A stretch of 64,000 nt of DNA from a virus: positions 9 to 64,008 of the IMG/VR virus record IMGVR_UViG_3300010389_000013; one strand, 5' to 3'. Positions 22,959-37,397 of this stretch are shown in pieces. The translations under genes and the position numbers were made by a program. Under the pieces are notes generated by a model. It saw only the letters and a program-made list of their open reading frames with translations. It was not told the DNA's origin and did not search any database. How positions within the stretch are numbered: the stretch's first letter is position 1; every line of letters starts with the position of its first letter.

Positions 22959-25900
22959 TCAGAGTTCCATCAACCACCAACCGCGTAGTGATGGTGGAAT
23001 TGTTCTTGCATCTGCAGATCCTTCAATGTCAACCGAACCAGCGTAAACTAGACCGAATGATGCATTTCTAGACTGAATGACAAGTTCGCCTGAATCCCAT
23101 GCTGTTGTTAGTGTTTGGTTAGCACCAGCGTCAATTCTTGATCCAGTTGTATCACCTTGAATTGCAGTAGCGATATTGTTAATCTTCTTCGCTCTGATGA
23201 TTAGACTTGTGTTGTATGTCAGGTTTCCACTGAGTTCAACAAATCTGATCATATCACCAGTTTGAGCATTATCTGGTAGATAAAGAACCATATTGCTACC
23301 GCTAGAAGCATTGACCATGTAGTTGTTATTAACTTGTAGTGGGTTGTCCTGTTGCTGACCAATGCCAGTTGTTGGATCAAACGCGACATAAGTGTGTCTT
23401 CTACCACCATTGCCAGTCCAATACTTCTCAATTCCGAAGGAGTCAATAGCGTTGTTCTGATAGATTCTAAAGTCTTTAGCACCCTCAGTTCCACCAACTC
23501 CCGTTCCACCAAGGTTGTCAATGTGGAACATGACTTCAGTTCCCTGCTCATCCTCATAGAGCTTACCTTTCTGGTAATAACGCTCACCAAGATAAACATC
23601 ACCTTCGCGGTTTGTAACTCTAAATGAAGTCTCAGTAGAGCAGATGCCATTCTGCTGACAATCATCATAGTAGACTTTCAGATCACCATAGAATGTAGCA
23701 GCACCCTTGAGGGTCATGCCATTAGTATTTTCAATGGGGTCTTCAATAGATCCGTCACCAGCGTGACCATCATCATTGGAGATAGAAAGAACTAGAGTCT
23801 GTCCATCAGAACCATACATCCTGAATGCACCACTGTATAGTGTGACATCATCATAGATCTTAGTATTACCACCACCAAATAGATCAACAATTGGTGTTGT
23901 AACTGCATTAGGATATCTGATGCTCTTAGGAAGTTTAATCGCAAAGAATGCATCAAGAGATCCATCAACACTATCTGGCAAGAAGAACTCATTACCAATT
24001 CTAACGAGAGTGATATAATCAAGTTTTGGTGAGATTAGATCAGCATCACGGAGTGTGATTTCTAGTCTTAGATCACTGGTGTTTGGTGTTCTTGCCTTGA
24101 GTGCAGTAGCACGTGCTCCTTGTGTTGCGGGAATATCATGTAGGAGTGTTGTTGTTCTGTCATACTTATCAAGTTTGACAACATTGACACCAGCAGCGAA
24201 GTTTTGTGCTGTTGTTCCTTCTTTTCCACGACCGCCAGTAGGATATCCAGCATTGCTGGAAGTTGGTAGGAAGAAATTACCACTCTGTTCGTATGGAGTG
24301 TCTGTAATTTGAATGATCTCAATCTGAGATCCATCAACATACATTGCACATAGATCACCGACGCTAAATGCATCAAGATTTGACTGAATTTGAATGTTGC
24401 TAGTAGCAGCAACGATAGAAGTTGCGAGAGTTGTGAATGGTCCACCACTAATTACAGACTGTGGATTGTGTCTATAAACATGTACTGCATCGGTGTCAGC
24501 GGTATAAGCTGCAGGTGAAGTTCCAAATGCCTCAGCAACCATGAATACAGTACCATGGACATTTCCAATGGTTGTATCACCCGTGCAGGTATCAACCTCA
24601 AAGGTTGTGATTGGAATTGTATTACCATTTGTGATGGTAAGTTTGTTGTTGGTTGGTGCGTTAGTAAATGGAGTTGTGCAGCTACCATTTATAGACAGTT
24701 GACCGTTAATGGTTGTGGTTTCTGAATTGAAAATTGTATCGCCAGTTGTTGTGTCAACCTCAAATACAGTCTCTTCATTTGCAGTATCACAACCATTCTT
24801 GATCTTGAACTTCTTGGCAATTTGATCAAGAAGTTCCTTGACCTTGAAGACTTCACCAATATCAAATACACTGTTGTTTGCACTTGATTCTCTACCGATG
24901 ATTACATAATCACCGATGGCAATAGAACCACCAAACTGTGCGAGATAAACGTTCTCATCATTACCAACATCATCAATTGCTTGCTCGGTCCAAGTAGCAT
25001 CAAACTGTACGATACACTTGTAGATAGCAGTTCTATCTGGATGTGCAGTGCTGACACCAGTGAAAGTACCGAATGGTTCTCTTTCAACAACAATGTAGTA
25101 AGGGGCAATGCTAATTCTTGGTAGAGAAACAACTCTTACAAATTCAACATTGCTTCCAACTGAGTTGGTATTGTATCTGAAATTGGTGATGCCATAGTTG
25201 TCATATTGATATCCACTGATGACCTGCTGATAAATCTGGAATGTAACACCAGCACCTTGTGACTGAATTGGAATGTCAAGTTGCAGAGTGGCATAATTCT
25301 TAGATTGATCAACCCATCTTACAAATGTTGGCCAAGTAGATGGATCATTATCAGTCAGATCTGTTGGTGCGATGAATCCCGCAGAAGTCCATGTTACACC
25401 ATTATCGGTGGAATAACGGATCTGTAGTCCTTCATTTTCAGCATCTGGTATTTCGCCACCATTGCTACCATTACCAACAAAAACATCAATCTCAACACTA
25501 GTGACAGATCCATTGTTGTTCAAGAATGAAGCATCAATTTCACTGAAAGTGACGTAACGTGGACCAGTTGTAGTTTCTTGGAAGATTGAACGGAATCCAA
25601 GATATCTCTGACCAGCGTCAAAACCACCATCGTTTCCTACACCAGTACCAGAATTAAAGACTCTAACACCGCCTCCAACGTCTGCAATAATGCCCTGTGG
25701 AGCATTGCCATCAAGGTAGGTGCCGAACTGTGCTTCTACAACAGATGCTGTTGCAGAGTCAGGAGAATCAATCAACAGGATGTCATTCTCTTGGAAGTAT
25801 GGATTGCCATTAGCATCCAGTGACTCTCTGAGAAGTGGTAGATAGTATTGGTTACCAGTTAGTGCTGGTAATGTCTGAGGTTCAATCTCTGGGTTGCCAC

Positions 25901-28900
25901 CGATGTTGGTGATTTCCTGCTGATAGTTAACACCACCCCAGTTGCCGCTACCAACCGTGTCAACCTCGTTATACTGAGAATCTCCACTGACATATCTCTG
26001 AACGTCAATTAGATCAACATTGCTATTGAACAAGTTGTTGCCAAGAATACCAGTTACATGAGCAATTCTGTTACTTCCTGCTTGTGCTCTAGTTGCAACA
26101 AATGAGTATGATGCAAATCCACCACATAGAGTCATATCAGAGTTGAATCTAGCAGTAGAATCAACGATCAGATTGTTTCTGATTGTGGTGCTACCACCCT
26201 GACCACCGATGGTGATCTGTGATGCGTTGGTAGCAAAGTCAAGGACAGAAGTTGCACTGTTTCCTGCGAAGAACTCAACAGTTCCTGCAGTAGATGACAA
26301 TCTAACAGTGTCAGTTAGACCTCTTCTGGTTCCTAACTGGAAGTCACCAGCAGTCTTGAATGACTTAGTACCAATCTGAGTGAATGATAGTGATTCGTTG
26401 TTGTTATATGCACCACCAATGGTGATCTTAGAGATGTTAGATTCGGTGTCTGGTGTATTGCCGATCCAGATGTTGCTATGCAGAGATGCATTGCCAACGT
26501 AGATGAACTGATCCTCAGTTGTGGTATTGAGTAAGTTTAGAGTTCCTACCTTGTTACCAACATTAAGTGTACCAACGAAAGGTGTATCAGTAAATAGGTT
26601 GACAGTTCCAGTTGTCTGTGAAGTTCTAACTTCAGCAACTGTACCGTCATCGCCATTGACTTCAATGTCATGCTCAAAGCGAGCATCATCAGTGAATCTT
26701 GATAGACCATCAACAACTAGTGCTCTGTCTAGTTCAGCGTTGGTTACGTTAATACCAACACGACCACCGTTTGTAGTAGCAACTCTTAGTGTTGCCTCAT
26801 TGTTTGGAGTTGCACTATCACCACCAACTAGAAGTGCATTGTCCTGTGCAACCTCAGTTCTGTTAGCATATACACTGTGATCAAGGAAGTCAGAGATAGT
26901 CTTACCACTGATGAATGCAGTACCAACAACGTCTAGGTTTGCACGTGGATCAGTGTTAACATCAGTCCATGCAGTTTGATAAGCATCATGCTCTGCTCTT
27001 GCTACAGTATTGATACCAAGCTTGAAGTCACCGATTGTTCCAGTTGTGGTTCTGATTGACTCAGCACCAAGAACACCAAACTCTTTCCAAGAAGAGTTGG
27101 AGAACTCCATTCTTACATTTGGATTCAGAGCATATTCAGCAGACCAAAGTCTTGGGTTATCGTTGGAAACATTACCTCTGTTCTCAACGATTGCAATCTG
27201 ACAAGATTGTGCGGTAGGATCAAATCCATTTGCAATGATCTGCCAGGTTCCATTGAATCCAGAATCACTGAAGTTACTGATTCTAATCTGTGATCCACTC
27301 GTAACACCAATCTGTTCGTTGGATAGGTTGTTACCCCAGTTGATTGTAATGACAGTGCTGCCATTCATCTGGAGGTTAGCAATGTTCGCAGTTGGAACAA
27401 TAGCGAAGAAGTTAGCGTAGATCCATCCAAGTGAACCAGTTCTGCCTACCTCATTGCCCTTGAGCAGCATATCGCCTGCCTTAGGACCACCAGCATTGCC
27501 GTACTGTACTGCCTGAAGTGAATCAAGTGATGTACCAAGACCAGTGCTATAGAGTGGCGTCTGGTTTGGTGCCATGTTGGATCCTTCAGAACCAACTACA
27601 TGGTTCTGGATCTTGTATCCTTGTGCTGCACCATTTGATCCGCGTGGGTTAAACTGGAAGACTGAAGCAGCAACTCTGTTTCTTGCGATAACAATATCGC
27701 CATTTGTATCCTGGTTAAGGAACTGATTTGTCTTGTCAAGTGATCCATCATCACCATCGCTAGGTGATACGTTAGAGATGACCTGCAGTGCATAGTCTCT
27801 AACTCTACCAAGAACGTTGATGACAACTGGTGAGTTGAATGTGCTTGGACGATCCTGTGCATCACCACCATTGACAGTGATGTACTCGTTGAAGGTTACA
27901 GGAGTATCAAACGTGGTAACGAGGTTACCGATATCTTCTGTATCATCATCCGAATCAACTAACTGTGCAGATTCTAGGAACTCTTCCTCACCAGTGATAG
28001 CGTCAATCTTACGGTTACCGATGTAGAGGTCACCGTTGGAGTTTAGACCAGTGTAGAAGACGAGACCACCATCTTGCTTCTTAGACTGTGCATAGAAGTC
28101 TTGAGTTGGGGTGAGAACAATCTCCTGTCTAGCAGGTAGACCAGTGGAGTAGTTACCAGGACCGAAACCAAGATATTCAAACGTGTGGTTACCAGCACGA
28201 GCAATAGATGGTCTACGAAGTTCAACGTAGAGTCTCTGATCAGAAACAACTGTGCTGTCACCAGCAATAGGAATACGACGATCTTCTGAACCAGAAGATG
28301 CATTACCCTTCTGTGCTCTAAGTCTGTTATCTACAGTAGAAGAGACCTGAGTGTAGGTGTTCTGTGACAGTGCAGGTTGCGAAGTGAAGTCAAGTGCCAT
28401 CTCACGGGTCATTGAACCCTTGAAGTCGTTGACTGTAACTAGACCGTGAGTGTAGTTATCTGCAGCAGAATATGTTGCAGGAGGATCAACCTCAGTTGCA
28501 TCCAACTGCTTGAACCAAAGAGGATCGTTCTTGTAGTTCAGTGGATATAGTTTGCTGATTGGCTGGGAGAACTTGAAGTTTCTGAAGTTACCCTGGTTAC
28601 CAGCACCAGTTGGGAATGGTGAGATGTTACCACGAACAGCGGTTAGATAGTAAATACCATCTTGCTGACCGAAGATACGACGCTGAATCTCTTCCGTGTC
28701 AAAGATGTAGAAGGTATCTTCTAGTTCACCAGCATCGGTTACAGACTCAACATAGTATTGGATGTTAGCATCGTCAGTGATGATATCACCAGGAGTTACA
28801 CTGTAGACTGCAGCACCATTCTGTCTGTAGTAGTATTCTGGATATCCCTTAGCGATAAGATCCTTGATGTACAGAGACTTACCAAAGTCTGCATCTGCAA

Positions 28901-31900
28901 GTAGATCAGCAAATACAGCACCCTGTGAGAATCTGATGTTATCAAACTGAGAGTAATCAATCTTACCAACAACACCCTTGAGGATGAGGTGCCACTCATT
29001 AGTTCCAGGAACGTTGAGTACAGCATGTAGATAACCGTAACCAGAAGAGTTACCGAACCACTCAATTCTGTTAGTAGCATCTAGTGACTGAGTTCTATCA
29101 GCAACGAATGTTCCTCCCTGAGGAGCAGTAATCTTGACCGTTGTGAATGTCTCATTTAGTAGACCGAGGTTTGTAATGCCCTGGTCAAAGACGGTCATTT
29201 CTAGATATTCATTGCCATCATTAGCGTCAATGAAATATCTACCAGACTGAATTGTCATGGAGACATAGTTTTGTGTCTCAATGATCTTGGCGTACTGAGT
29301 GCCACCTACGATGTCCTTCTTAAATGGATCGTATGCGTTCTCTTCATTGAGGCTGTTAGTGATAAAGTCTTGTGCGGTATAACCGATGACTTCATTTAAC
29401 TGCACTGGGTTGAAGAAACGTGCCTTGGTTACAGAACCAGCAACAGGTCTCAGTACAAGTTTTTGCGGGAGAAGTTTTCTGGTCTCGTCCTTACGCATCT
29501 TAATGGAGAAACCATTGATGGGATCACGGACTGCCTGCAGATACTTAGGAATGACATAACGTAGACGATAGATACGCTCATCTGCATCTCTTTCGTCCTT
29601 AATTCTTTCAAACCAGGAGTCATTGGTCTTATCTTGACCCGAGAGATCACTGTATGCAGTCTCATGGAATCTGGTGAGGATGCTGTAATCATACTCAGGA
29701 TCACTAGAATTCTCAGAGTGATTCTCTACCTGTAGATACCACTTACCATATACAGTTGGGGTTGTACCTGGGGTTGGATATGTTGGGTCAAATCGCATTG
29801 GCGATTCACGCTTATCAGCAAATGCCGAGAAGTCGTATGTACCAGGCTGGAATGTAATTGGGTTTACATCACCAATTGCATCTGCCTTGGTAGCGTGAAT
29901 AGTAAATACTTTCTCGTTCTGATAACGTGCCCAGAAGAATCTATCTTCCTTGATTCTACCATTACCATCAGCAACCGATGGATCAGCAGCATATGCAGCA
30001 CCAACTAAAGGTAGTGCTCCACCCTCGTTTGCACGGAAGAATACCTGATGACCAGTGATGTTATTGAATGGAACATCAAAGATGTGAGGAACATCAGTTC
30101 TGATACCAGAGTTGACAGCAGTATCAAGCACACAGGAATACTGGTGTAGATCATAGTTGTCATCTAGAACAAACTGATAAACATCAATCTCAATATCTGG
30201 ATCAATAGCTTCTACTTCAGCAGAGTGGATGTAGATACCAGCAGCAGCGTTCTCTTTGCTGCTTGCAAGCATCAACTTGGTTTGATCAGATCCATCAAAC
30301 GAACCAGCGGAAGAGTAATCTTCTGGTTTGGTAGTTCTACCAGGAGCGATGACATAATACTTCTCGTTGGTAGTGAAACCGTTTGGAAGTCTGATCTTTC
30401 TCTTGTCAACGTCAACGTACTGATTAGTTACTGTATCGTAGCGAGGACGTGGTACAAGGCGTATAGGAGTTCCAGTCTCTAGATCGTGTGGATTAGATCC
30501 CGAACCGTCTCTCAGGGTCCATACAGTCGCTCTAGAAGCGAGTTCTGTGGTGAGTTGGGTTGGTTCGTTTCTTGGAACAGTGTTGAGACCAGTCTGAATA
30601 ATCGTCGTGATGTTTGCAAAATACTGACGAATCGTGTTTGCCTGGTCAACACACTCAGGATATGTGGTGTGCTGAGTGATCGTCTCATCAACAGTAGGTG
30701 TATACTCGCTGGTGTAAGTTCCAGCGGTTAGAGTGAAGTATAGATAGGAGTTAGTGCTGTTAGCATTAGCATTAACAGAAGGACCGAATGCAAGTCCAAG
30801 TGGAGATGGTTGTCTCTCAATAGACTCTAGGTAACCAGGATTTGCAATGGTGTCGGTAATGATCTGGAACAGCGTTGTGATCGCAGATGCAACATTCTGA
30901 CAAGAACCATTAGAAACAGTTCTCTGGATGCTATTGAGTGAAGAAGGAGTAAGAACTGCGTTCTGTACAATACCGAATAGAGTATTGATTGTAGTTCTAG
31001 CATCCTCACAGGATCCGACAGAAACGCTTCTAGCAACACCAGCAAGAGATGCAGGGGTGGTTACTGCGTTAGTTACGATAAGAGTAAGATCGGTGATAGT
31101 TGAAGCAACGTCTGCACACTGAGTTGCAGCGTCAATAGTGATAGTATTATCAAACGTTTGAGTGAAACCATGAGATCCAGCGATCGTGATAGGATCGTTT
31201 CTCATTGCCTGAATCATCAGGTCACGTGCAAAGTTTAGAGACTCAACTGTCTGTGACTCTTCACCAGCAACATGAGCACCCTGTACATATAGGTTTGCCA
31301 TGTCCCAGGTACGATCATTACCACCATATGCAGTGTTGTAGGTTACTTCCTCAACAAAGTCCATGATGTCATCAATACAATCCTGTGCATTACCTGTTGG
31401 GGTTGTGAATCCAGGATTGTTTGCAAGCATCAAATCATATGCTTCATATGCAATCAGATTCTTATTAGCAATGATGAGATTACGTGCATCACCATTACGA
31501 TCAACTACAGGATCTGGTTCTTCGTAAGTGATGGTGTTGTCATAAGTTTGTGATAGACCATGTGAACCAACGACGAGAACCTTCTGGTTTCTCATTACCT
31601 GAGCAGCCATCTCTTTTGCCTGCTCAAAGACATAATTGGTCTCTGCCTCTTCTCCTGCTACATGAGCACCATGTACATAAGAATAGGATGCATCCCAAGT
31701 CTTATCGTTGCCACCATATGCTAGGTTATCAGCAACTGCTTCTAGGAGATCTACAACGTCATCAATACAGTTCTGATTGCCACCAGGGACAGAGAATGCA
31801 GGATAGACAGTGAGCATTCTCTCAACTGCCTCATTAGCGATGAGGTTCTTATTAGCGAGAATGAGATCTCTTGCATCACCATAGCGATCCTTAACTAGTT

Positions 31901-34775
31901 CAGGTGCCTCATAAGTGATGCTGGTGTCCTTAGTCTGAGTCAGACCATGTGTACCAAAGATAAAGACATCTTCATTGCGTTGTACCTGAATTGCCATGTC
32001 CTTGGCATACTCAAATACACGAATTGACTCTTGCTCTTCACCAGTGATATGACTACCAGTTTCATAGAGATATGCAGCATCCCATGTCTCTGCGTTACCG
32101 CCATATGCAGTGTTCTCAGCAACTGCTTCTAGAACGTCTACAACGTCATCAATACAGTTCTGGTCACCACCAGGAACAGAGAAACCAGGGAAGTCAAGAT
32201 GCATTCTAGCAACTGCTTCTGCTGCGATGAAGTTCTTGTTAGCAAGGATAAGATCCTTTGCATCACCATAACGATCAGTTACGAGTTTCTTCTCAGAGTA
32301 AATTGCCTTCTGACCAATCTCAATGGTTGTGCTGTCAATAACACGCTTAACATAGGTGTTATCTGGGATGACAGGAGATGCAGGGCGAGTAGCACCATTG
32401 TTTAGTTTGCCATCAGTAAACTGAGAAGGATCGTAGTCAGCAACCAGCATACCAGTGACAATACCAGAAGTATCGCCAACATTGACAATTGAGCTAGCAG
32501 CAGTTGTTGAACAACCCTGACGCTGATATGAGAAGTTTCTCATCGCAGCAATTGCTAGATCTCTAGCGTAGTTGTAACCCTCTAGAGTCTCTGTTAGTTC
32601 ACCAGTGATGTATGATAGGTTATTACCAACGTAGTATGCTTCTGCTGCTTGTATGGTGTTGATGTTGCCACCGAGTCTCAAGTCTTGTACAGTAGCATCA
32701 ATTAGATAACCAATGTCACGACGGCACTTGTCAATCGTGATGTTCTCTTTGATTGTGATTGCTGGATACTTACCAGTGATGTATCCATATGCTTCATATG
32801 CAATGAATTCTTTGTTTTCTTCAATTCTGTTTGCAGCGTCAAGGTTCTTGTGGTTGATTGTGACGCCACTGGGATTCAAGATGTCAGCAGTTGCAGTAAA
32901 CTTCTTGAAACCATTTGGGGTTAGAGTTGCATTGAAGATGTTGTCAGCACCAGCACTTCTAGGTGTCAGTTTGACATAGAGTTTTTCATCAGTTCTTGTA
33001 CCGATTCTAAAACCATCAATAGACGCTGCTGGACGTGATGTTGGATCAAATCCATCATCATTGCCTAGGTATAGTTTGGTATGGTTGTTGGGATCGTTGG
33101 ATGCCTTAACGTCAAGCGTATAGTAAGCATTCTTCTTCGTGTTGCCAGTAGTTTCTGGAACAATCTGAGGAGGAATAATATCAGTGATGTATCCACCCTT
33201 ATCCTGGTTGAACGCAAATCCTTTGAAACCAATTGCGTGGAGTGAGGTGTTACCGAAGTTGGAGTTAGAGTTGGTGATGGACATGTCACCACCACTTTCC
33301 ATTAGGAAGTGATCAGCGAAACCAACAGCGAAGATAGAAACGTTCTGGATGAATGCGTCTTCAGTTGCTCTAACGTGGAAGTTTCTCCAGTCATCCTTCC
33401 AGTATGCATCACCCTTGGTGTGATAAGGAACCGTAGCAAATGCATCAGTTAGAGATGCTTGGTTAAAGGTATTAGTAAACTCGTCGTAACGGATGAATGC
33501 TCTATCGTCTTTCTGTAGCGAAACACCCGTATACTGAGCGATAACCATTGACTTAAAGCCTGTTGCCTTAAGACCGTTTGCCCAGATACCGCAAATACCC
33601 CAGGTAGAACGAATGGAGCAGTTAAAGACATATGGTGATGCAGACTCAACGGAGTCAACCTCTGCCTTAACAACAGCGTTAGCACTCAGACCATTCTGTG
33701 CCGTATAAGTTGTGCCGCTAACGAGACTTACAGTCGTTCCAAGGGCAGCAACTGTACCAGCAATCTGATAACTAAACTTCCTTGCATCTACAAGGTCAAT
33801 AGATGAAATTGGGAACGTACCATTGAGTTGATCGTCAAGACCATTGTTCTCAATAGCGATAAACTGGTTTTTGAAGTAACCGTGGTTAACTTTTGTGGTG
33901 ACTTCAACAGTGATGGTTCCTGCTGGTGAGGAATCTGTACACTTGATGCTCTCAATAGAGCGAAGGTCAGATAGAGGACCAACAATTCTAGTCTCCTGAA
34001 TTCTATCAGAGAATTCGCCAGGATCATCAATAGTTGGTTGATACTCAGAGAATGCCTTTGCAATCTTTTGATAGTACAGACCTAATTCTTCTTTGTCTGC
34101 ATATTCAAAGACAGTCAGTTTGTGGTGCGAATAGTTAGGAATCGCGAGTTGATCCCACTGACCATTTTGATAGTAAACTTTACCTACACCTTCGTTTCTA
34201 TCATAAAGTGGCGAAGATGGTTCTAGGTCACCGTCTTTAATGGTGAACTGCCAGAAGTAACATGCACCAGTTACGTTAAAGATTGCTGAACGTCTTTCTA
34301 GTTTATCAGCAGGATCAGGAACGTATAGTGGGCGAACAACGGTTCTACGAAGGTCATAACCAACGAGGGATGAACCTCTAGGTAAGATAGCACCACCTTC
34401 GGTGTTGTTGAAGAGATATAGTTTGTTGTTTGGATCAGAAATGTCTAGGTTTGAACTATCAGTCCACTCGTTTAGTGCTTGATCAAACGAAAAAGCATCA
34501 ATACCATTAGTATCTACAAGACCTGGGCGGTTATCAATATAGTGATTACCAGGCATCAACATGATCGTGAACTGGTCAAAACGATCATTGTCAGGACCAG
34601 GAAGATACGAATACCTAGCGATTTCTAGGAATGCTCTCTGGATAGACTTGAATGGTCTAATTGGTGAATTACCTCTGTTATTCAGCTCATCCGACGCATT
34701 AAAATCGTCAGGGGAGACATACAAATACTTACCAGTTTTAGAGCTGATAAGGTTGTCAAGTCTAGTCAAAGCCAT
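22959..34775 (-). CDS. giant (about 3940 aa) tail fiber / virion structural protein
   Basis: Uninterrupted ORF; MALTRLDNL...YV N-terminus, beta-helix-like first 600 aa, internal tandem repeats; late promoter upstream. Confidence 0.9.
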   Translation of the reverse strand: MALTRLDNLISSKTGKYLYVSPDDFNASDELNNRGNSPIRPFKSIQRAFLEIARYSYLPGPDNDRFDQFTIMLMPGNHYIDNRPGLVDTNGIDAFSFDQALNEWTDSSNLDISDPNNKLYLFNNTEGGAILPRGSSLVGYDLRRTVVRPLYVPDPADKLERRSAIFNVTGACYFWQFTIKDGDLEPSSPLYDRNEGVGKVYYQNGQWDQLAIPNYSHHKLTVFEYADKEELGLYYQKIAKAFSEYQPTIDDPGEFSDRIQETRIVGPLSDLRSIESIKCTDSSPAGTITVEVTTKVNHGYFKNQFIAIENNGLDDQLNGTFPISSIDLVDARKFSYQIAGTVAALGTTVSLVSGTTYTAQNGLSANAVVKAEVDSVESASPYVFNCSIRSTWGICGIWANGLKATGFKSMVIAQYTGVSLQKDDRAFIRYDEFTNTFNQASLTDAFATVPYHTKGDAYWKDDWRNFHVRATEDAFIQNVSIFAVGFADHFLMESGGDMSITNSNSNFGNTSLHAIGFKGFAFNQDKGGYITDIIPPQIVPETTGNTKKNAYYTLDVKASNDPNNHTKLYLGNDDGFDPTSRPAASIDGFRIGTRTDEKLYVKLTPRSAGADNIFNATLTPNGFKKFTATADILNPSGVTINHKNLDAANRIEENKEFIAYEAYGYITGKYPAITIKENITIDKCRRDIGYLIDATVQDLRLGGNINTIQAAEAYYVGNNLSYITGELTETLEGYNYARDLAIAAMRNFSYQRQGCSTTAASSIVNVGDTSGIVTGMLVADYDPSQFTDGKLNNGATRPASPVIPDNTYVKRVIDSTTIEIGQKAIYSEKKLVTDRYGDAKDLILANKNFIAAEAVARMHLDFPGFSVPGGDQNCIDDVVDVLEAVAENTAYGGNAETWDAAYLYETGSHITGEEQESIRVFEYAKDMAIQVQRNEDVFIFGTHGLTQTKDTSITYEAPELVKDRYGDARDLILANKNLIANEAVERMLTVYPAFSVPGGNQNCIDDVVDLLEAVADNLAYGGNDKTWDASYSYVHGAHVAGEEAETNYVFEQAKEMAAQVMRNQKVLVVGSHGLSQTYDNTITYEEPDPVVDRNGDARNLIIANKNLIAYEAYDLMLANNPGFTTPTGNAQDCIDDIMDFVEEVTYNTAYGGNDRTWDMANLYVQGAHVAGEESQTVESLNFARDLMIQAMRNDPITIAGSHGFTQTFDNTITIDAATQCADVASTITDLTLIVTNAVTTPASLAGVARSVSVGSCEDARTTINTLFGIVQNAVLTPSSLNSIQRTVSNGSCQNVASAITTLFQIITDTIANPGYLESIERQPSPLGLAFGPSVNANANSTNSYLYFTLTAGTYTSEYTPTVDETITQHTTYPECVDQANTIRQYFANITTIIQTGLNTVPRNEPTQLTTELASRATVWTLRDGSGSNPHDLETGTPIRLVPRPRYDTVTNQYVDVDKRKIRLPNGFTTNEKYYVIAPGRTTKPEDYSSAGSFDGSDQTKLMLASSKENAAAGIYIHSAEVEAIDPDIEIDVYQFVLDDNYDLHQYSCVLDTAVNSGIRTDVPHIFDVPFNNITGHQVFFRANEGGALPLVGAAYAADPSVADGNGRIKEDRFFWARYQNEKVFTIHATKADAIGDVNPITFQPGTYDFSAFADKRESPMRFDPTYPTPGTTPTVYGKWYLQVENHSENSSDPEYDYSILTRFHETAYSDLSGQDKTNDSWFERIKDERDADERIYRLRYVIPKYLQAVRDPINGFSIKMRKDETRKLLPQKLVLRPVAGSVTKARFFNPVQLNEVIGYTAQDFITNSLNEENAYDPFKKDIVGGTQYAKIIETQNYVSMTIQSGRYFIDANDGNEYLEMTVFDQGITNLGLLNETFTTVKITAPQGGTFVADRTQSLDATNRIEWFGNSSGYGYLHAVLNVPGTNEWHLILKGVVGKIDYSQFDNIRFSQGAVFADLLADADFGKSLYIKDLIAKGYPEYYYRQNGAAVYSVTPGDIITDDANIQYYVESVTDAGELEDTFYIFDTEEIQRRIFGQQDGIYYLTAVRGNISPFPTGAGNQGNFRNFKFSQPISKLYPLNYKNDPLWFKQLDATEVDPPATYSAADNYTHGLVTVNDFKGSMTREMALDFTSQPALSQNTYTQVSSTVDNRLRAQKGNASSGSEDRRIPIAGDSTVVSDQRLYVELRRPSIARAGNHTFEYLGFGPGNYSTGLPARQEIVLTPTQDFYAQSKKQDGGLVFYTGLNSNGDLYIGNRKIDAITGEEEFLESAQLVDSDDDTEDIGNLVTTFDTPVTFNEYITVNGGDAQDRPSTFNSPVVINVLGRVRDYALQVISNVSPSDGDDGSLDKTNQFLNQDTNGDIVIARNRVAASVFQFNPRGSNGAAQGYKIQNHVVGSEGSNMAPNQTPLYSTGLGTSLDSLQAVQYGNAGGPKAGDMLLKGNEVGRTGSLGWIYANFFAIVPTANIANLQMNGSTVITINWGNNLSNEQIGVTSGSQIRISNFSDSGFNGTWQIIANGFDPTAQSCQIAIVENRGNVSNDNPRLWSAEYALNPNVRMEFSNSSWKEFGVLGAESIRTTTGTIGDFKLGINTVARAEHDAYQTAWTDVNTDPRANLDVVGTAFISGKTISDFLDHSVYANRTEVAQDNALLVGGDSATPNNEATLRVATTNGGRVGINVTNAELDRALVVDGLSRFTDDARFEHDIEVNGDDGTVAEVRTSQTTGTVNLFTDTPFVGTLNVGNKVGTLNLLNTTTEDQFIYVGNASLHSNIWIGNTPDTESNISKITIGGAYNNNESLSFTQIGTKSFKTAGDFQLGTRRGLTDTVRLSSTAGTVEFFAGNSATSVLDFATNASQITIGGQGGSTTIRNNLIVDSTARFNSDMTLCGGFASYSFVATRAQAGSNRIAHVTGILGNNLFNSNVDLIDVQRYVSGDSQYNEVDTVGSGNWGGVNYQQEITNIGGNPEIEPQTLPALTGNQYYLPLLRESLDANGNPYFQENDILLIDSPDSATASVVEAQFGTYLDGNAPQGIIADVGGGVRVFNSGTGVGNDGGFDAGQRYLGFRSIFQETTTGPRYVTFSEIDASFLNNNGSVTSVEIDVFVGNGSNGGEIPDAENEGLQIRYSTDNGVTWTSAGFIAPTDLTDNDPSTWPTFVRWVDQSKNYATLQLDIPIQSQGAGVTFQIYQQVISGYQYDNYGITNFRYNTNSVGSNVEFVRVVSLPRISIAPYYIVVEREPFGTFTGVSTAHPDRTAIYKCIVQFDATWTEQAIDDVGNDENVYLAQFGGSIAIGDYVIIGRESSANNSVFDIGEVFKVKELLDQIAKKFKIKNGCDTANEETVFEVDTTTGDTIFNSETTTINGQLSINGSCTTPFTNAPTNNKLTITNGNTIPITTFEVDTCTGDTTIGNVHGTVFMVAEAFGTSPAAYTADTDAVHVYRHNPQSVISGGPFTTLATSIVAATSNIQIQSNLDAFSVGDLCAMYVDGSQIEIIQITDTPYEQSGNFFLPTSSNAGYPTGGRGKEGTTAQNFAAGVNVVKLDKYDRTTTLLHDIPATQGARATALKARTPNTSDLRLEITLRDADLISPKLDYITLVRIGNEFFLPDSVDGSLDAFFAIKLPKSIRYPNAVTTPIVDLFGGGNTKIYDDVTLYSGAFRMYGSDGQTLVLSISNDDGHAGDGSIEDPIENTNGMTLKGAATFYGDLKVYYDDCQQNGICSTETSFRVTNREGDVYLGERYYQKGKLYEDEQGTEVMFHIDNLGGTGVGGTEGAKDFRIYQNNAIDSFGIEKYWTGNGGRRHTYVAFDPTTGIGQQQDNPLQVNNNYMVNASSGSNMVLYLPDNAQTGDMIRFVELSGNLTYNTSLIIRAKKINNIATAIQGDTTGSRIDAGANQTLTTAWDSGELVIQSRNASFGLVYAGSVDIEGSADARTIPPSLRGWWLMEL
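31116..32276 (-). repeat. three tandem about 129-aa (387-nt) coding repeats in the giant fiber gene
   Basis: DRYGDAKDL / DRYGDARDL / DRNGDARNL begin at 32276, 31889 and 31502; each unit has CIDD and YGGN..TWD. Confidence 0.9.
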
Positions 34776-34815
34776 ATTACTCAACCGCTGCGGTTACTAA
34801 GATCTGATCTCAGAT

Positions 34816-34823: not shown

Positions 34824-34843
34824 CAACTCTAATGGGCGGTTTA

Positions 34844-34917
34844 CGGGACTGATGGGACTTGAACCCACGGCACCCTGCGTGACAGGCAGGTACTCTAACC
34901 AACTGAGCTACAGCCCC
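34844..34917 (-). tRNA. trnD: tRNA-Asp(GUC)
   Basis: GGGGCTGTAGCTCAGTTGG...CCTGC-CT-GTC-AC-GCAGG...GGTTCAAGTCCC; no encoded CCA. Confidence 0.95.
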
Positions 34918-34920
34918 AAA

Positions 34921-34992
34921 CTCCCAAGGCAGGATTTGAACCTGCGACCGAGCGATTAACAGTCGCCTGCTCTGCCGCTGAGCTACTTGGGA
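34921..34992 (-). tRNA. trnN: tRNA-Asn(GUU)
   Basis: TCCCAAG acceptor stem, anticodon arm GGCGA-CT-GTT-AA-TCGCT, T-loop GTTCAAAT. Confidence 0.95.
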
Positions 34993-35017
34993 ATGTTCGC
35001 TATTTGCGAATAGCGAA

Positions 35018-35089
35018 TGGAGAATAGGGGATTTGAACCCCTAACCCCCTGCTTGCAAAGCAGGTGCTCTACCGTTGAGCTAATTCCCC
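35018..35089 (-). tRNA. trnA: tRNA-Ala(UGC)
   Basis: GGGGAAT/ATTCTCC-A stem with G3:U70; anticodon TGC. Confidence 0.95.
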
Positions 35090-35093
35090 GAAA

Positions 35094-35368
35094 GGGGCAT
35101 TTCACCCCAAAGAGTCTGTTGGATTAGAAGGTAGACTTAACCCCCATCTCCCCTTATGGGTCAGGCAACAGCAGCTGCTTGACGGGAGAATGCAACGATG
35201 TTATTCGCTGCGGTGTCAGATGTGTTTGCATCTATTTGGTGCTTATCCAAGCAGGTTTCAGTCACGCTCCTTATACCCCGTCAAAACCATGGCACCCCCT
35301 CGCATGGAGGTGAGGGGAATTGAACCCCTGTCCGAAATGTAGGTGGCGTCACCTATTCTCTCAAAAGA
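35094..35368 (-). ncRNA. ssrA: circularly permuted (two-piece) tmRNA, cyanobacterial type
   Basis: T-arm GGGGTTCAATTCCCC and acceptor 3' strand CACCTCC-A (35312-35305); 5-nt spacer TGCGA; 5' strand GGGGGTG (35299-35293, G3:U70) then CCATGGTTTTGACGGGG; tag frame ending NNIVAFSRQAAAVA-stop (35161); terminal hairpin 35094-35108. Confidence 0.93.
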
Positions 35369-35373
35369 GAGAA

Positions 35374-35447
35374 AGCCACAAGTCGGACTTGAACCGACGA
35401 CCTACGGTTTACAAAACCGTTGCTCTATCCAGCTGAGCTATAGTGGC
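35374..35447 (-). tRNA. trnT: tRNA-Thr(UGU)
   Basis: GCCACTA acceptor stem, arm ACGGT-TT-TGT-AA-ACCGT, GGTTCAAGTCC. Confidence 0.95.
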
Positions 35448-35904
35448 GTATAAACTCTAGGTGTCCCCATTGAGAACCCCAGATTTTTTGGTTTGTCTTC
35501 GGGTCAATCCCCGAGTCCATAACCTTGTAACTATTGTAACCTAAGATGATGTCGTTTGTCAAGTACGTTGTGACGCCTTTCCAATTGACCCAGCAGTTAC
35601 AATCTGTATTGTGACCGTGGTACTCGTTTCCCACCGACTCAAATATTGTATCACATCCCTCTTTGTATGTCAAACCATCTAGAGTGAAATTTTTGACGCG
35701 AAATTTTTTCCCTTCTGGGCAAATACGCATCCGAAATTCCCTGTATGGATTGTTCTGGGAATGATAGTATGCTTGCTTACCATAGAACCAATCTTCATCA
35801 ATTCTCTGGTGGGTGATGATTATCCTAGCATATCGCGTAGGATGCTTCATTGCTTGTAAACGATTATCAAATGTGCCTTCTAGATAATCATGAAACTGAG
35901 TCAT
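35425..35904 (-). CDS. cpeT: CpcT/CpeT-like bilin lyase, copy A
   Basis: LEGTFDNRLQA..HP..YA.I...H...NPYR...DSG.D....IWGS. Confidence 0.85.
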   Translation of the reverse strand: MTQFHDYLEGTFDNRLQAMKHPTRYARIIITHQRIDEDWFYGKQAYYHSQNNPYREFRMRICPEGKKFRVKNFTLDGLTYKEGCDTIFESVGNEYHGHNTDCNCWVNWKGVTTYLTNDIILGYNSYKVMDSGIDPKTNQKIWGSQWGHLEFIRHYSSAG

Positions 35905-36192: not shown

Positions 36193-36831
36193 TTATTTAT
36201 CAGCATATGAAAACAAAAAGTTGTTAACGTAATCTTCTGAAAAGTCTTTGCCAAACTTACTTGCCATATATCCAGCAACAGGGTCTAACTCCAGCATATA
36301 CTTGTCAAAATCAGCATAATAAGAGGTATCATGCTCGGTGGGTCTAGCAAATGCCAGCAACTCTTCATATGCTCTCACATATCGCTTGAAATTATTCAAG
36401 TGATTTGGGATCTCATCACGTGTACATTTGCGAACATAAATGTACCGAGAGAAGTGATTTCCTGCCTCAAAGAATCTGATATCTTTGTCAGTATTGTCAA
36501 TCATGTCACTCAGCAAGTATAGAATCACTGGATGATTGAAATCTTTATGTGGGGTAGGATGCTGGAAGTCAAAAACAAGAATAACTTTCTTCTCAAAGAA
36601 ACACATCAAGTCCATGCCGAAGCAAGGAAGATCTTCACCTGTCTTTGGATAGACAATATTGTTATAGATGTCTGTCTCTCCACATCTAATAATTGTCTCT
36701 CGTGACTTTAATACATGACTTCCAGTGTAGAGTTTTGACTCCAGCACTGCATCTTTAGACACTGAATGAGACGACTCATGCTCTTCCAGTTTCAGGTGAT
36801 CTACAAGAAAATCTCTATACTCTTTCCACAT
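36193..36831 (-). CDS. pebS: phycoerythrobilin synthase (ferredoxin-dependent bilin reductase)
   Basis: DIYN..YPKTG.DLPCFGMDL, VFDFQHP, RFFE.GNHFS, ELDPV.GYM..KFG; both catalytic-type Asp residues present; start MWKEY. Confidence 0.92.
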   Translation of the reverse strand: MWKEYRDFLVDHLKLEEHESSHSVSKDAVLESKLYTGSHVLKSRETIIRCGETDIYNNIVYPKTGEDLPCFGMDLMCFFEKKVILVFDFQHPTPHKDFNHPVILYLLSDMIDNTDKDIRFFEAGNHFSRYIYVRKCTRDEIPNHLNNFKRYVRAYEELLAFARPTEHDTSYYADFDKYMLELDPVAGYMASKFGKDFSEDYVNNFLFSYADK

Positions 36832-36846
36832 GTTTGTACTCAATAA

Positions 36847-36930
36847 TAGGAGTGGGGGGACTTGAACCCCCACGAGTTAATTCTCAGCGGATTTTAAGTC
36901 CGATACGTCTACCGATTCCGTCACACTCCC
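36847..36930 (-). tRNA. trnL: tRNA-Leu(UAA)
   Basis: GGGAGTGTGACGGAATCGGTAGAC...TCGGA-CT-TAA-AA-TCCGC, long variable arm, GGTTCAAGTCC. Confidence 0.95.
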
Positions 36931-37397
36931 AAGGGTTTGTCTGTTTTCTGGAATTCATATATGACATTGCTGCCCCATACTACTTTTCCATCTCGCCATC
37001 CTTGGTCTCTACTCTTATAGTAGGAACCGTTGAACTTCACGGTAGATTTTAGCATACCGCCGTTGATAATGCAAGCATCAGTTTTCACTCTGCCATCATA
37101 ATGATCTCCAGCATCAAAGAACATCATATCACAGCAGTGATTGTGTTCTTTCCAGTCTGGTTCCCAGTTCTGAACTATGATAACTCCTTGCTGCTCAAAG
37201 ACTTTATGCCATTTTTGCCTGTAAGGATTATCTTCACCTATGTAATGATACCACTGCTTTGATTTAAACAAATTGTCACCGATACGCTCCCACTTGAGTT
37301 TGATGTGGGCATATCTGGCAGGATCTCTTGCTGCTTGAAACCAATTGTCGTAGAACCCTTCAAGTTTATCACAAAATTCTTTTACCACAACCAACAA
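36921..37397 (-). CDS. cpeT: CpcT/CpeT-like bilin lyase, copy B
   Basis: LEGFYDNWFQAARDPARYAHI...NPYRQ...CDM.F...D.G...WGS. Confidence 0.8.
   Translation of the reverse strand: MLVVVKEFCDKLEGFYDNWFQAARDPARYAHIKLKWERIGDNLFKSKQWYHYIGEDNPYRQKWHKVFEQQGVIIVQNWEPDWKEHNHCCDMMFFDAGDHYDGRVKTDACIINGGMLKSTVKFNGSYYKSRDQGWRDGKVVWGSNVIYEFQKTDKPLGV

Follow-up and report, generated by a model that had tools for sequence, protein, structure and literature searches.

The locus examined here raises the question of whether a T4-like cyanophage carries a working tmRNA (ssrA) gene of its own and, if so, how this gene relates to the tmRNA of the cyanobacterial hosts. The window, by which we mean the whole stretch of DNA that was analysed, is a 64-kb IMG/VR virus record estimated to represent one third of a genome, and its sequence matches exclusively T4-like Synechococcus/Prochlorococcus myoviruses. 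A two-piece tmRNA has reportedly been described in marine Synechococcus, Prochlorococcus and Cyanobium, by Gaudin and colleagues in 2002 and by Sharkady and Williams in 2004, the second of these works being cited in PMC9004378. An earlier reading made from the letters alone (the sequence-only reading) had placed a circularly permuted tmRNA, host-derived but diverged, at 35094-35368 on the minus strand of the window, and had named the Rfam cyano_tmRNA covariance model and the permuted mode of ARAGORN as checks.

A permuted tmRNA gene in a phage tRNA block

We found that the minus strand carries, from 35373 to 35094, a permuted tmRNA (ssrA) gene that is complete at both ends. The Rfam cyano_tmRNA model (RF01851) matched 35390..35094 (-) with 165.8 bits (E 6.5e-46) against a gathering score of 70, over its full length (model positions 1-288 of 288), and the tmRNA_permuted model (RF04321, gathering score 47) gave 86 bits on the same gene. 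ARAGORN called a permuted tmRNA at 35070-35394 (-) with the tag ANTSDTAANNIVAFSRQAAAVA*. Both proposed checks detected the gene and the two detectors agree on the permuted form, with a support far above chance. The first ~17 nt of the RF01851 match are the 3' end of a tRNA-Thr, which sets the start of the tmRNA gene at ~35373. The sequence-only reading had found the gene at its place, but the 5' hairpin (35373..35356) is truncated by its boundary at 35368. A second ARAGORN call, a non-permuted tmRNA at 35018-35279 made up of the coding piece and the neighbouring tRNA-Ala, was rejected as an artefact of adjacency, because the covariance model and the relatives favour the permuted form and a tRNA-Arg is found at that position in S-CAM1 and S-CAM3. 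The features of the locus, all on the minus strand, are as follows.

35645..35673 (-): second promoter candidate, TTGACA-17-TACAAT, TG-extended (consensus scan, 11/12)
35533..35562 (-): sigma-70-like promoter candidate, TTGACA-18-TACAAT, ~85 nt upstream of tRNA-Thr (consensus scan, 11/12)
35374..35447 (-): tRNA-Thr(UGU), directly upstream of the tmRNA (ARAGORN)
35094..35373 (-): permuted tmRNA precursor, from the end of tRNA-Thr to the 3' terminal hairpin (RF01851 and ARAGORN)
35356..35373 (-): 5' hairpin UUCUCUC-UUUU-GAGAGAA, opening the acceptor piece (first helix of RF01851)
35305..35353 (-): core of the acceptor piece, including a P2 strand (sequence, covariance-model alignment, covariation)
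35329..35313 (-): T-arm AGGGG-UUCAAUU-CCCCU (sequence)
35312..35306 (-): acceptor 3' strand CACCUCC (sequence)
35305 (-): discriminator A73 (sequence)
35300..35304 (-): intervening segment UGCGA, 5 nt, predicted to be removed during two-piece maturation (sequence)
35094..35299 (-): coding piece, with acceptor 5' strand, D-loop analogue, P2 strand, tag frame, downstream helices and 3' hairpin (sequence, covariance model, covariation)
35299..35293 (-): acceptor 5' strand GGGGGUG (sequence)
35161..35229 (-): tag reading frame ANTSDTAANNIVAFSRQAAAVA, resume GCA 35229..35227, stop UGA 35163..35161 (ARAGORN)
35209..35229 (-): 21-nt insertion at the resume site, specific to the phage lineage (comparison with host and phage copies)
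35094..35108 (-): 3' terminal hairpin GGGG-UGAAAUG-CCCC, followed by UUUC and tRNA-Ala (last helix of RF01851, covariation)
35018..35089 (-): tRNA-Ala(UGC), 4 nt downstream of the tmRNA (ARAGORN, Rfam)
34920-34993 (-): tRNA-Asn(GUU) (ARAGORN, Rfam)
34843-34918 (-): tRNA-Asp(GUC) (ARAGORN, Rfam)

The T-arm and the acceptor 3' strand lie upstream of the acceptor 5' strand and the tag frame, which is the permuted order, and every detail of this layout that can be read from the letters (acceptor stem, T-arm, 5-nt spacer, GGGGGUG, tag frame) agrees with the earlier proposal. The 7-bp acceptor stem contains the alanine identity pair, G3 (35297) with U70 (35308), that had been pointed out there, together with A73 (35305), and no CCA is encoded at the acceptor 3' end. 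The stem of the 5' hairpin differs in sequence among the other phage copies in the alignment, while its pairing is kept (CCAC/GUGG, CACUC/GAGUG, CCUC/GAGG).

According to ARAGORN, the RNA block runs on one strand in the order tRNA-Thr, tmRNA, tRNA-Ala, tRNA-Asn and tRNA-Asp, with a tRNA-Leu further upstream. The promoter scan returned a total number of sites no higher than in shuffled sequences, so that both promoters listed above are mere candidates. The genes around the block are two CpeT-like genes, a bilin reductase, a 2OG-Fe(II) oxygenase and, downstream, an ORF of 3,941 codons. This ORF (22959-34784, -) occupies the position of the giant tail-fibre gene of the relatives, and its residues 1100-1159, within the N-terminal third, match the Pfam Phycobilisome family (PF00502, 38.8 bits), which is odd for a tail-fibre-like protein. 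The CpeT-like ORFs (35425-35904 and 36921-37397, -) flank the ferredoxin-dependent bilin reductase (36193-36873) and the tRNA-Leu. Their best Pfam stretches fall in different halves of the CpeT profile (103-181 and 3-81), so that they may be paralogues or one gene interrupted by an insertion, and the ORF at 35425-35904 overlaps the tRNA-Thr by ~23 nt.

Phage relatives and their separation from host tmRNAs

With the tmRNA alone as the blastn query, 16 phage records were matched at 70-79% identity, the phages being Sf-FS3, S-CAM1, S-CAM3, S-SSM7/S-SSM6a and Marine virus AG-345-P14. The copies of S-CAM1, S-CAM3, S-SSM7 and AG-345-P14 showed 76-79% identity to that of the window, and S-CRM01 and S-CBWM1 gave no blastn match to it. 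Five representative phage homologues yielded full-length cyano_tmRNA matches of 109-143 bits and permuted calls by ARAGORN. In all 16 records, the matching region is annotated as 'hypothetical protein' or not at all; the GenBank 'hypothetical protein' CDSs that cover the tmRNA, namely C421010_205 of S-CAM3 (L003:2455-2595), SSSM7_025 of S-SSM7 (L005:2504-2722) and those in the KU68619x records of S-CAM1, are probably spurious. The earlier remark that scanners commonly miss such genes is borne out by the GenBank annotation of these relatives, but not by ARAGORN, which finds the gene. S-CAM1 also carries, ~2.3 kb downstream of its tmRNA, a match to the wcaG RNA motif (RF01761, 83.5 bits, L004:5066-5162), a known cyanophage-associated motif that is not present in the window.

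In the complete isolate genome of Sf-FS3, the tmRNA directly follows a tRNA-Thr, with further tRNAs and the giant tail-fibre gene downstream, as in the window, and in S-SSM7 it lies between 2OG oxygenase genes and the giant tail-fibre gene. S-CAM1 and S-CAM3 have it at another locus, before tRNA-Arg and tRNA-Val. Given the matches to cyanomyoviruses only, the IMG/VR virus record and the homologues at a syntenic locus in complete isolate genomes, the tmRNA of the window sits on a bona fide phage genome and not on host DNA. The window is a metagenome-derived virus record, for which an assembly chimera or a contamination by host DNA might be suspected, but the placements in Sf-FS3 and S-SSM7 and the position of the sequence in the phage clade, not in the host clade (see below), leave this explanation with almost no probability. 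Just as hard to credit is the view that the gene is the attachment-site remnant of a temperate element integrated into ssrA, a site often used for integration (PMC4131195, PMC4383910): the gene has both its ends and is not a 3' fragment, a search of the window for an integrase (PF00589) found none, its relatives belong to lytic T4-like myoviruses, and in the phages it is found inside a tRNA block at two separate loci.

To the reference phages, a scan of IMG/VR with a tag-core pattern, in which no phage-specific feature was required, added 30 more contigs with permuted tmRNAs. A tag-core pattern scan of one genome per prokaryote species returned ~100 permuted tmRNAs from Synechococcus, Prochlorococcus, Cyanobium and relatives, a sample that, being picked by the pattern, covers hosts with that core only. 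The window tmRNA shared 71-76% identity with the best-matching host copies and 83-91% with copies from other phages, the nearest relative being the IMG/VR locus L178 (91%). A maximum-likelihood tree built from 98 host and 30 phage rows separated hosts and phages on a single branch with an SH-aLRT of 100. The split was retained at 100/100, and in all bootstrap trees, when the alignment was trimmed of the flanks, of the insertion specific to the phages, of the nested tRNA described below and of the three longest rows. Because the tree has no root and the phage sequences evolve faster, it does not date the capture. These data support the expectation that the window tmRNA would be host-derived but diverged. 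They fit a single origin of the phage tmRNAs with later spread among cyanomyoviruses, and do not fit repeated recent captures.

Two IMG/VR copies (L133:1690-1989 and L235:2387-2686) are without the 21-nt insertion, have the tag ANNIVAFSRSKSTALV and stand on a very long branch on the phage side; they could be an early-branching form or a case of secondary loss. Cyanobacterial-type tmRNAs were also found on three contigs (L013, L052 and L056) of MAGs labelled Chitinophaga pinensis and Sphingobacterium thalpophilum. These contigs are most likely mis-binned, because their tmRNAs nest among the Cyanobium/Synechococcus copies in the tree.

Selection, probable transcripts and the resume site

RNAalifold predicted 48 pairs from 24 phage copies (an alignment that left out L143 and L226), and 20 of the 48 showed double-sided compensatory changes, which fall in P2, the T-arm, the acceptor stem and one downstream helix. 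The G3:U70 pair was invariant in all 24 copies. Across tag codons 8-16 (ANNIVAFSR), the 22 unique phage copies differed at third positions only, with the exception of one A-to-V change, the rest being synonymous. The compensatory changes, the invariant G3:U70 and the synonymous core codons indicate purifying selection in the phages on the RNA fold as well as on the encoded peptide, which rules out a decaying relic.

Parts of the stretch were present in 14 metatranscriptome runs. When four runs from four studies were mapped to the 4 kb around the gene, contigs at 98-100% identity covered the tmRNA in all of them. In one run (X1), a 413-nt contig (34999-35411) comprised tRNA-Ala, the tmRNA and part of tRNA-Thr, with the flanking protein genes uncovered, a pattern that argues against simple DNA carry-over. 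Contigs of two runs (X2 and X3) end exactly at 35094; being assembled, such contigs cannot show ends, strand or abundance, and some DNA may be among them. From these assembled contigs, the phage tmRNA is likely to be expressed.

A gene that is host-like and missing from most cyanomyoviruses might also be decaying, non-functional host DNA, that is, a pseudogene or hitchhiker. Full-length covariance-model matches were, however, obtained in all lineages, compensatory changes are abundant around an invariant alanine identity pair, the variation of the core tag is synonymous, the phage copies form a single deep clade and not repeated recent captures, and the tmRNA is present in RNA libraries. We regard this explanation as very improbable. 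Taken together, these results indicate that the cyanophage tmRNAs are one old, selected, phage-borne lineage rather than sporadic pick-ups from hosts, and that the circularly permuted tmRNA (ssrA) gene which the phage encodes, cyanobacterial in type, is probably functional.

The feature that sets the phage copies apart is found at the resume site. Directly upstream of the host-equivalent resume codon (GCG, 35208..35206 in the window), 21 extra bases were present in 6/6 reference copies and in 28/30 IMG/VR copies, and in none of the ~100 host tmRNAs compared. Where present, the insertion is always 21 nt long and its frame is always open; ARAGORN reads it as a 7-residue extension, A-[NK]-x-x-x-x-A, and it probably adds seven residues to the tag. 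Among the 22 unique phage resume regions, the upstream GCA has A at -4 in all and U or C at -5. The resume context of E. coli is AAUAGUC followed by GCA, in which A-4 and U-5 matter, and by analogy the context of the upstream phage GCA resembles it. The host-equivalent GCG of the phages, in contrast, is without the U-5 and A-4 found in host copies (GUAACA followed by GCG). Judging from these contexts and from the constant length and open frame of the insertion, we consider it probable that translation resumes at the upstream GCA and not at the host-equivalent GCG.

The insertion may, on the other hand, be selected as an RNA structure. It forms a hairpin, AGAUG-CAAACA-CAUCU (35233..35218), and the residues encoded by extension codons 3-6 show little conservation; in AG-345-P14, the hairpin is kept by two compensatory changes at the cost of one amino-acid change. 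The poor peptide conservation and this compensation both point to such a role, although the hairpin is not part of the RNAalifold consensus and its support, by eye and from one compensatory lineage (L006), is weak. A second hairpin, GC(A/U)GCGA-AUAACA-UCGU(U/A)GC, spans the host-equivalent codon; its covariation (UA in 17 copies, AU in 7) makes use of synonymous codons for Ala and Val.

The host tag is near-invariant in the ~100 species, ANNIV[RSA]FSRQ[ATPS]APVAA. Phage tags vary from 16 to 31 residues in length and end in AVA (window), ATA, VTA, VAA, VPA, VAV or ALV, every ending being small and apolar, as in degradation tags, although this diversity stands out beside the fixed tag of the hosts. 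In two IMG/VR copies (L132 and L197), the extension occurs together with QAAPVAA, the exact ending of the host tag, from which the ending of the window, QAAAVA, differs by the loss of one codon and a Pro-to-Ala change. Since the window ends in QAAAVA where hosts end in APVAA, and since the C-termini vary among phage copies, the proteolytic targeting by the window tag may differ from that by the host tag.

It is conceivable, though we think it unlikely, that the phages have re-engineered the resume site, such that resumption seven codons upstream yields a longer, phage-specific tag and gives the phage control over the fate of rescued proteins. If this were true, rescued chains would be distinguishable from host-tagged ones and would bear lineage-specific C-termini, and the phage tmRNA would do more than top up that of the host. 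We assign a still lower probability to an outright subversion of trans-translation, in which the phage tmRNA would compete for SmpB and stalled ribosomes and its phage-specific tag, with seven more residues at the N-terminus and a changed C-terminus, would impose a different fate, such as slower degradation or another protease or adaptor. The shared insertion and diverse C-termini of the phage tags beside an almost invariant host tag, and the resume context that is invariant at A-4, with U/C-5, at the upstream GCA and lost at the host-equivalent GCG, would be in accordance with it. Against it stand the small apolar ending of all phage tags, the retention of the exact host C-terminus in L132 and L197, and the poor conservation of extension codons 3-6, with the RNA hairpin and not the peptide being followed in L006, so that the insertion may be an RNA feature.

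Proposed mechanism, known systems and significance

For the functional tmRNA that we favour, processing into two pieces, charging, use of SmpB, the resume codon and the benefit to the phage are inferred as follows. The tmRNA would be transcribed along with the tRNAs around it, in the order Thr, tmRNA, Ala, Asn, Asp. Host RNase P would cut 5' of G35299, the 5-nt trailer after A35305 would be trimmed, and, because no CCA is encoded, the host CCA-adding enzyme would supply it. The two pieces would be held by base pairing in the acceptor stem and P2, and host AlaRS would charge the RNA with alanine by way of G3:U70 and A73. Host SmpB would then bring the phage tmRNA to ribosomes stalled on broken mRNAs, and translation would resume on the tag frame, giving the nascent chain the ANNIVAFSR core and a small apolar C-terminus that leads to proteolysis. 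The likely benefit is that rescue capacity and amino-acid recycling would stay high during infection, when host transcription is stopped and mRNAs are degrading.

A search with PF01668 found no smpB in the window (~1/3 of the genome), as the sequence-only reading had noted, nor in four complete relatives, Sf-FS3, S-CAM3, S-CAM1 and S-SSM7; the same search detected SmpB in Synechococcus elongatus. With no phage smpB found, host SmpB would be needed, and the earlier suggestion that the phage could run its own ribosome rescue does not hold for the phage alone: as far as the gene content suggests, its tmRNA must use the SmpB, AlaRS, RNase P and CCA-adding enzyme of the host. A further suggestion, that the phage tmRNA backs up host tmRNA cut by defence nucleases, is speculation. 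Only a minority of cyanomyoviruses (16 records among the phages searched) carries the gene, which makes it dispensable.

We also observed phage copies in which a complete tRNA-Tyr(GUA) lies inside the intervening segment of the tmRNA (L143:13569-13652 (-), also L139 and L175, and L226:1886-1968 (-)), in the layout ...CACCUCCA, UU, tRNA-Tyr, CUCCU, GGGGGUG... These copies represent two separate sublineages of the tmRNA and occupy two different loci in the phages, and their arrangement would fit maturation by tRNA-processing enzymes. A tRNA-Ala in the tmRNA intervening sequence of one nominally archaeal marine MAG has been called a 'unique feature' (PMC11915505), beside which the nested tRNA-Tyr of the phages are further examples.

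The window tmRNA resembles the two-piece tmRNA of the hosts (RF01851) in gene order, in all modelled helices, in G3:U70, A73 and the terminal hairpins, in the lack of an encoded CCA and in the tag core ANNIV-FSR. It differs from it in sequence, lying on the phage side of the 100%-supported branch with 71-76% identity, in the 21-nt insertion, in a shorter (5 nt) intervening segment, in a tag that ends in QAAAVA and not in Q-x-APVAA, and in its occurrence in a phage in which no smpB was found.

The sequence-only reading had left it undecided whether a tmRNA is reported for this phage group, and this is the case. Buchholz et al. (2022) ran ARAGORN on 18,146 phage genomes and obtained 133 unique tmRNAs, of which 53 were of the two-piece form and largely marine, and their Table S1 lists six cyanophages with permuted tmRNAs: S-CAM1, S-CAM3, S-SSM7, S-CRM01, S-CBWM1 and AG-345-P14 (PMC9004378). 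Those of S-CAM1, S-CAM3, S-SSM7 and AG-345-P14 are homologues of the window gene and have the resume-site insertion in common with it. That study tabulates the cyanophage tmRNAs only; the lineage, its separation from hosts, the insertion and the tag diversity are not described there, and we found no other paper that describes them. Apart from PMC9004378, tmRNA turned up in connection with cyanophages, cyanomyoviruses or S-SSM7 only in the reference lists of papers or in statements that none was found. The same work treats the OM43 phage Melnitz and pelagimyophages, which, like the phage of the window, are T4-like marine myophages with a permuted ssrA and no smpB, and proposes for their tmRNA a similar role, rescue and recycling early in infection (PMC9004378). 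Their tmRNA is, however, of the alphaproteobacterial type and linked to a glutamine riboswitch, whereas that of the window is of the cyanobacterial type and lies in a tRNA block; the Rfam scan reported no riboswitch in the window. Mycobacteriophages of the Bxz1 group and Bacillus phage G have, as here, a phage ssrA dependent on host SmpB, but their tmRNAs are one-piece, non-permuted and from unrelated host lineages (PMC4131195). A tmRNA survey of 2014 listed only mycobacteriophages and Bacillus phage G as ssrA phages (PMC4131195), and a tmRNA database of 2025 holds 79 unique bacteriophage tmRNAs (PMC11915505). Permuted tmRNAs in cyanomyoviruses are thus already tabulated, and the window copy is a new, distinct example; the lineage-level observations are, as far as we found, new, and are refinements rather than a new kind of system.

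The tmRNA genes of cyanophages in GenBank are unannotated or mis-annotated as hypothetical proteins, which calls for a simple annotation fix. The isolates S-CAM1, S-CAM3 and S-SSM7, on Synechococcus WH7803 or WH8109, offer a testable system that could show what makes ribosome rescue worth the investment for a lytic phage. In the carbon cycling of the ocean, a major part is played by marine picocyanobacteria and the T4-like phages that infect them, and translation factors imported by the phages bear on how the host is taken over.
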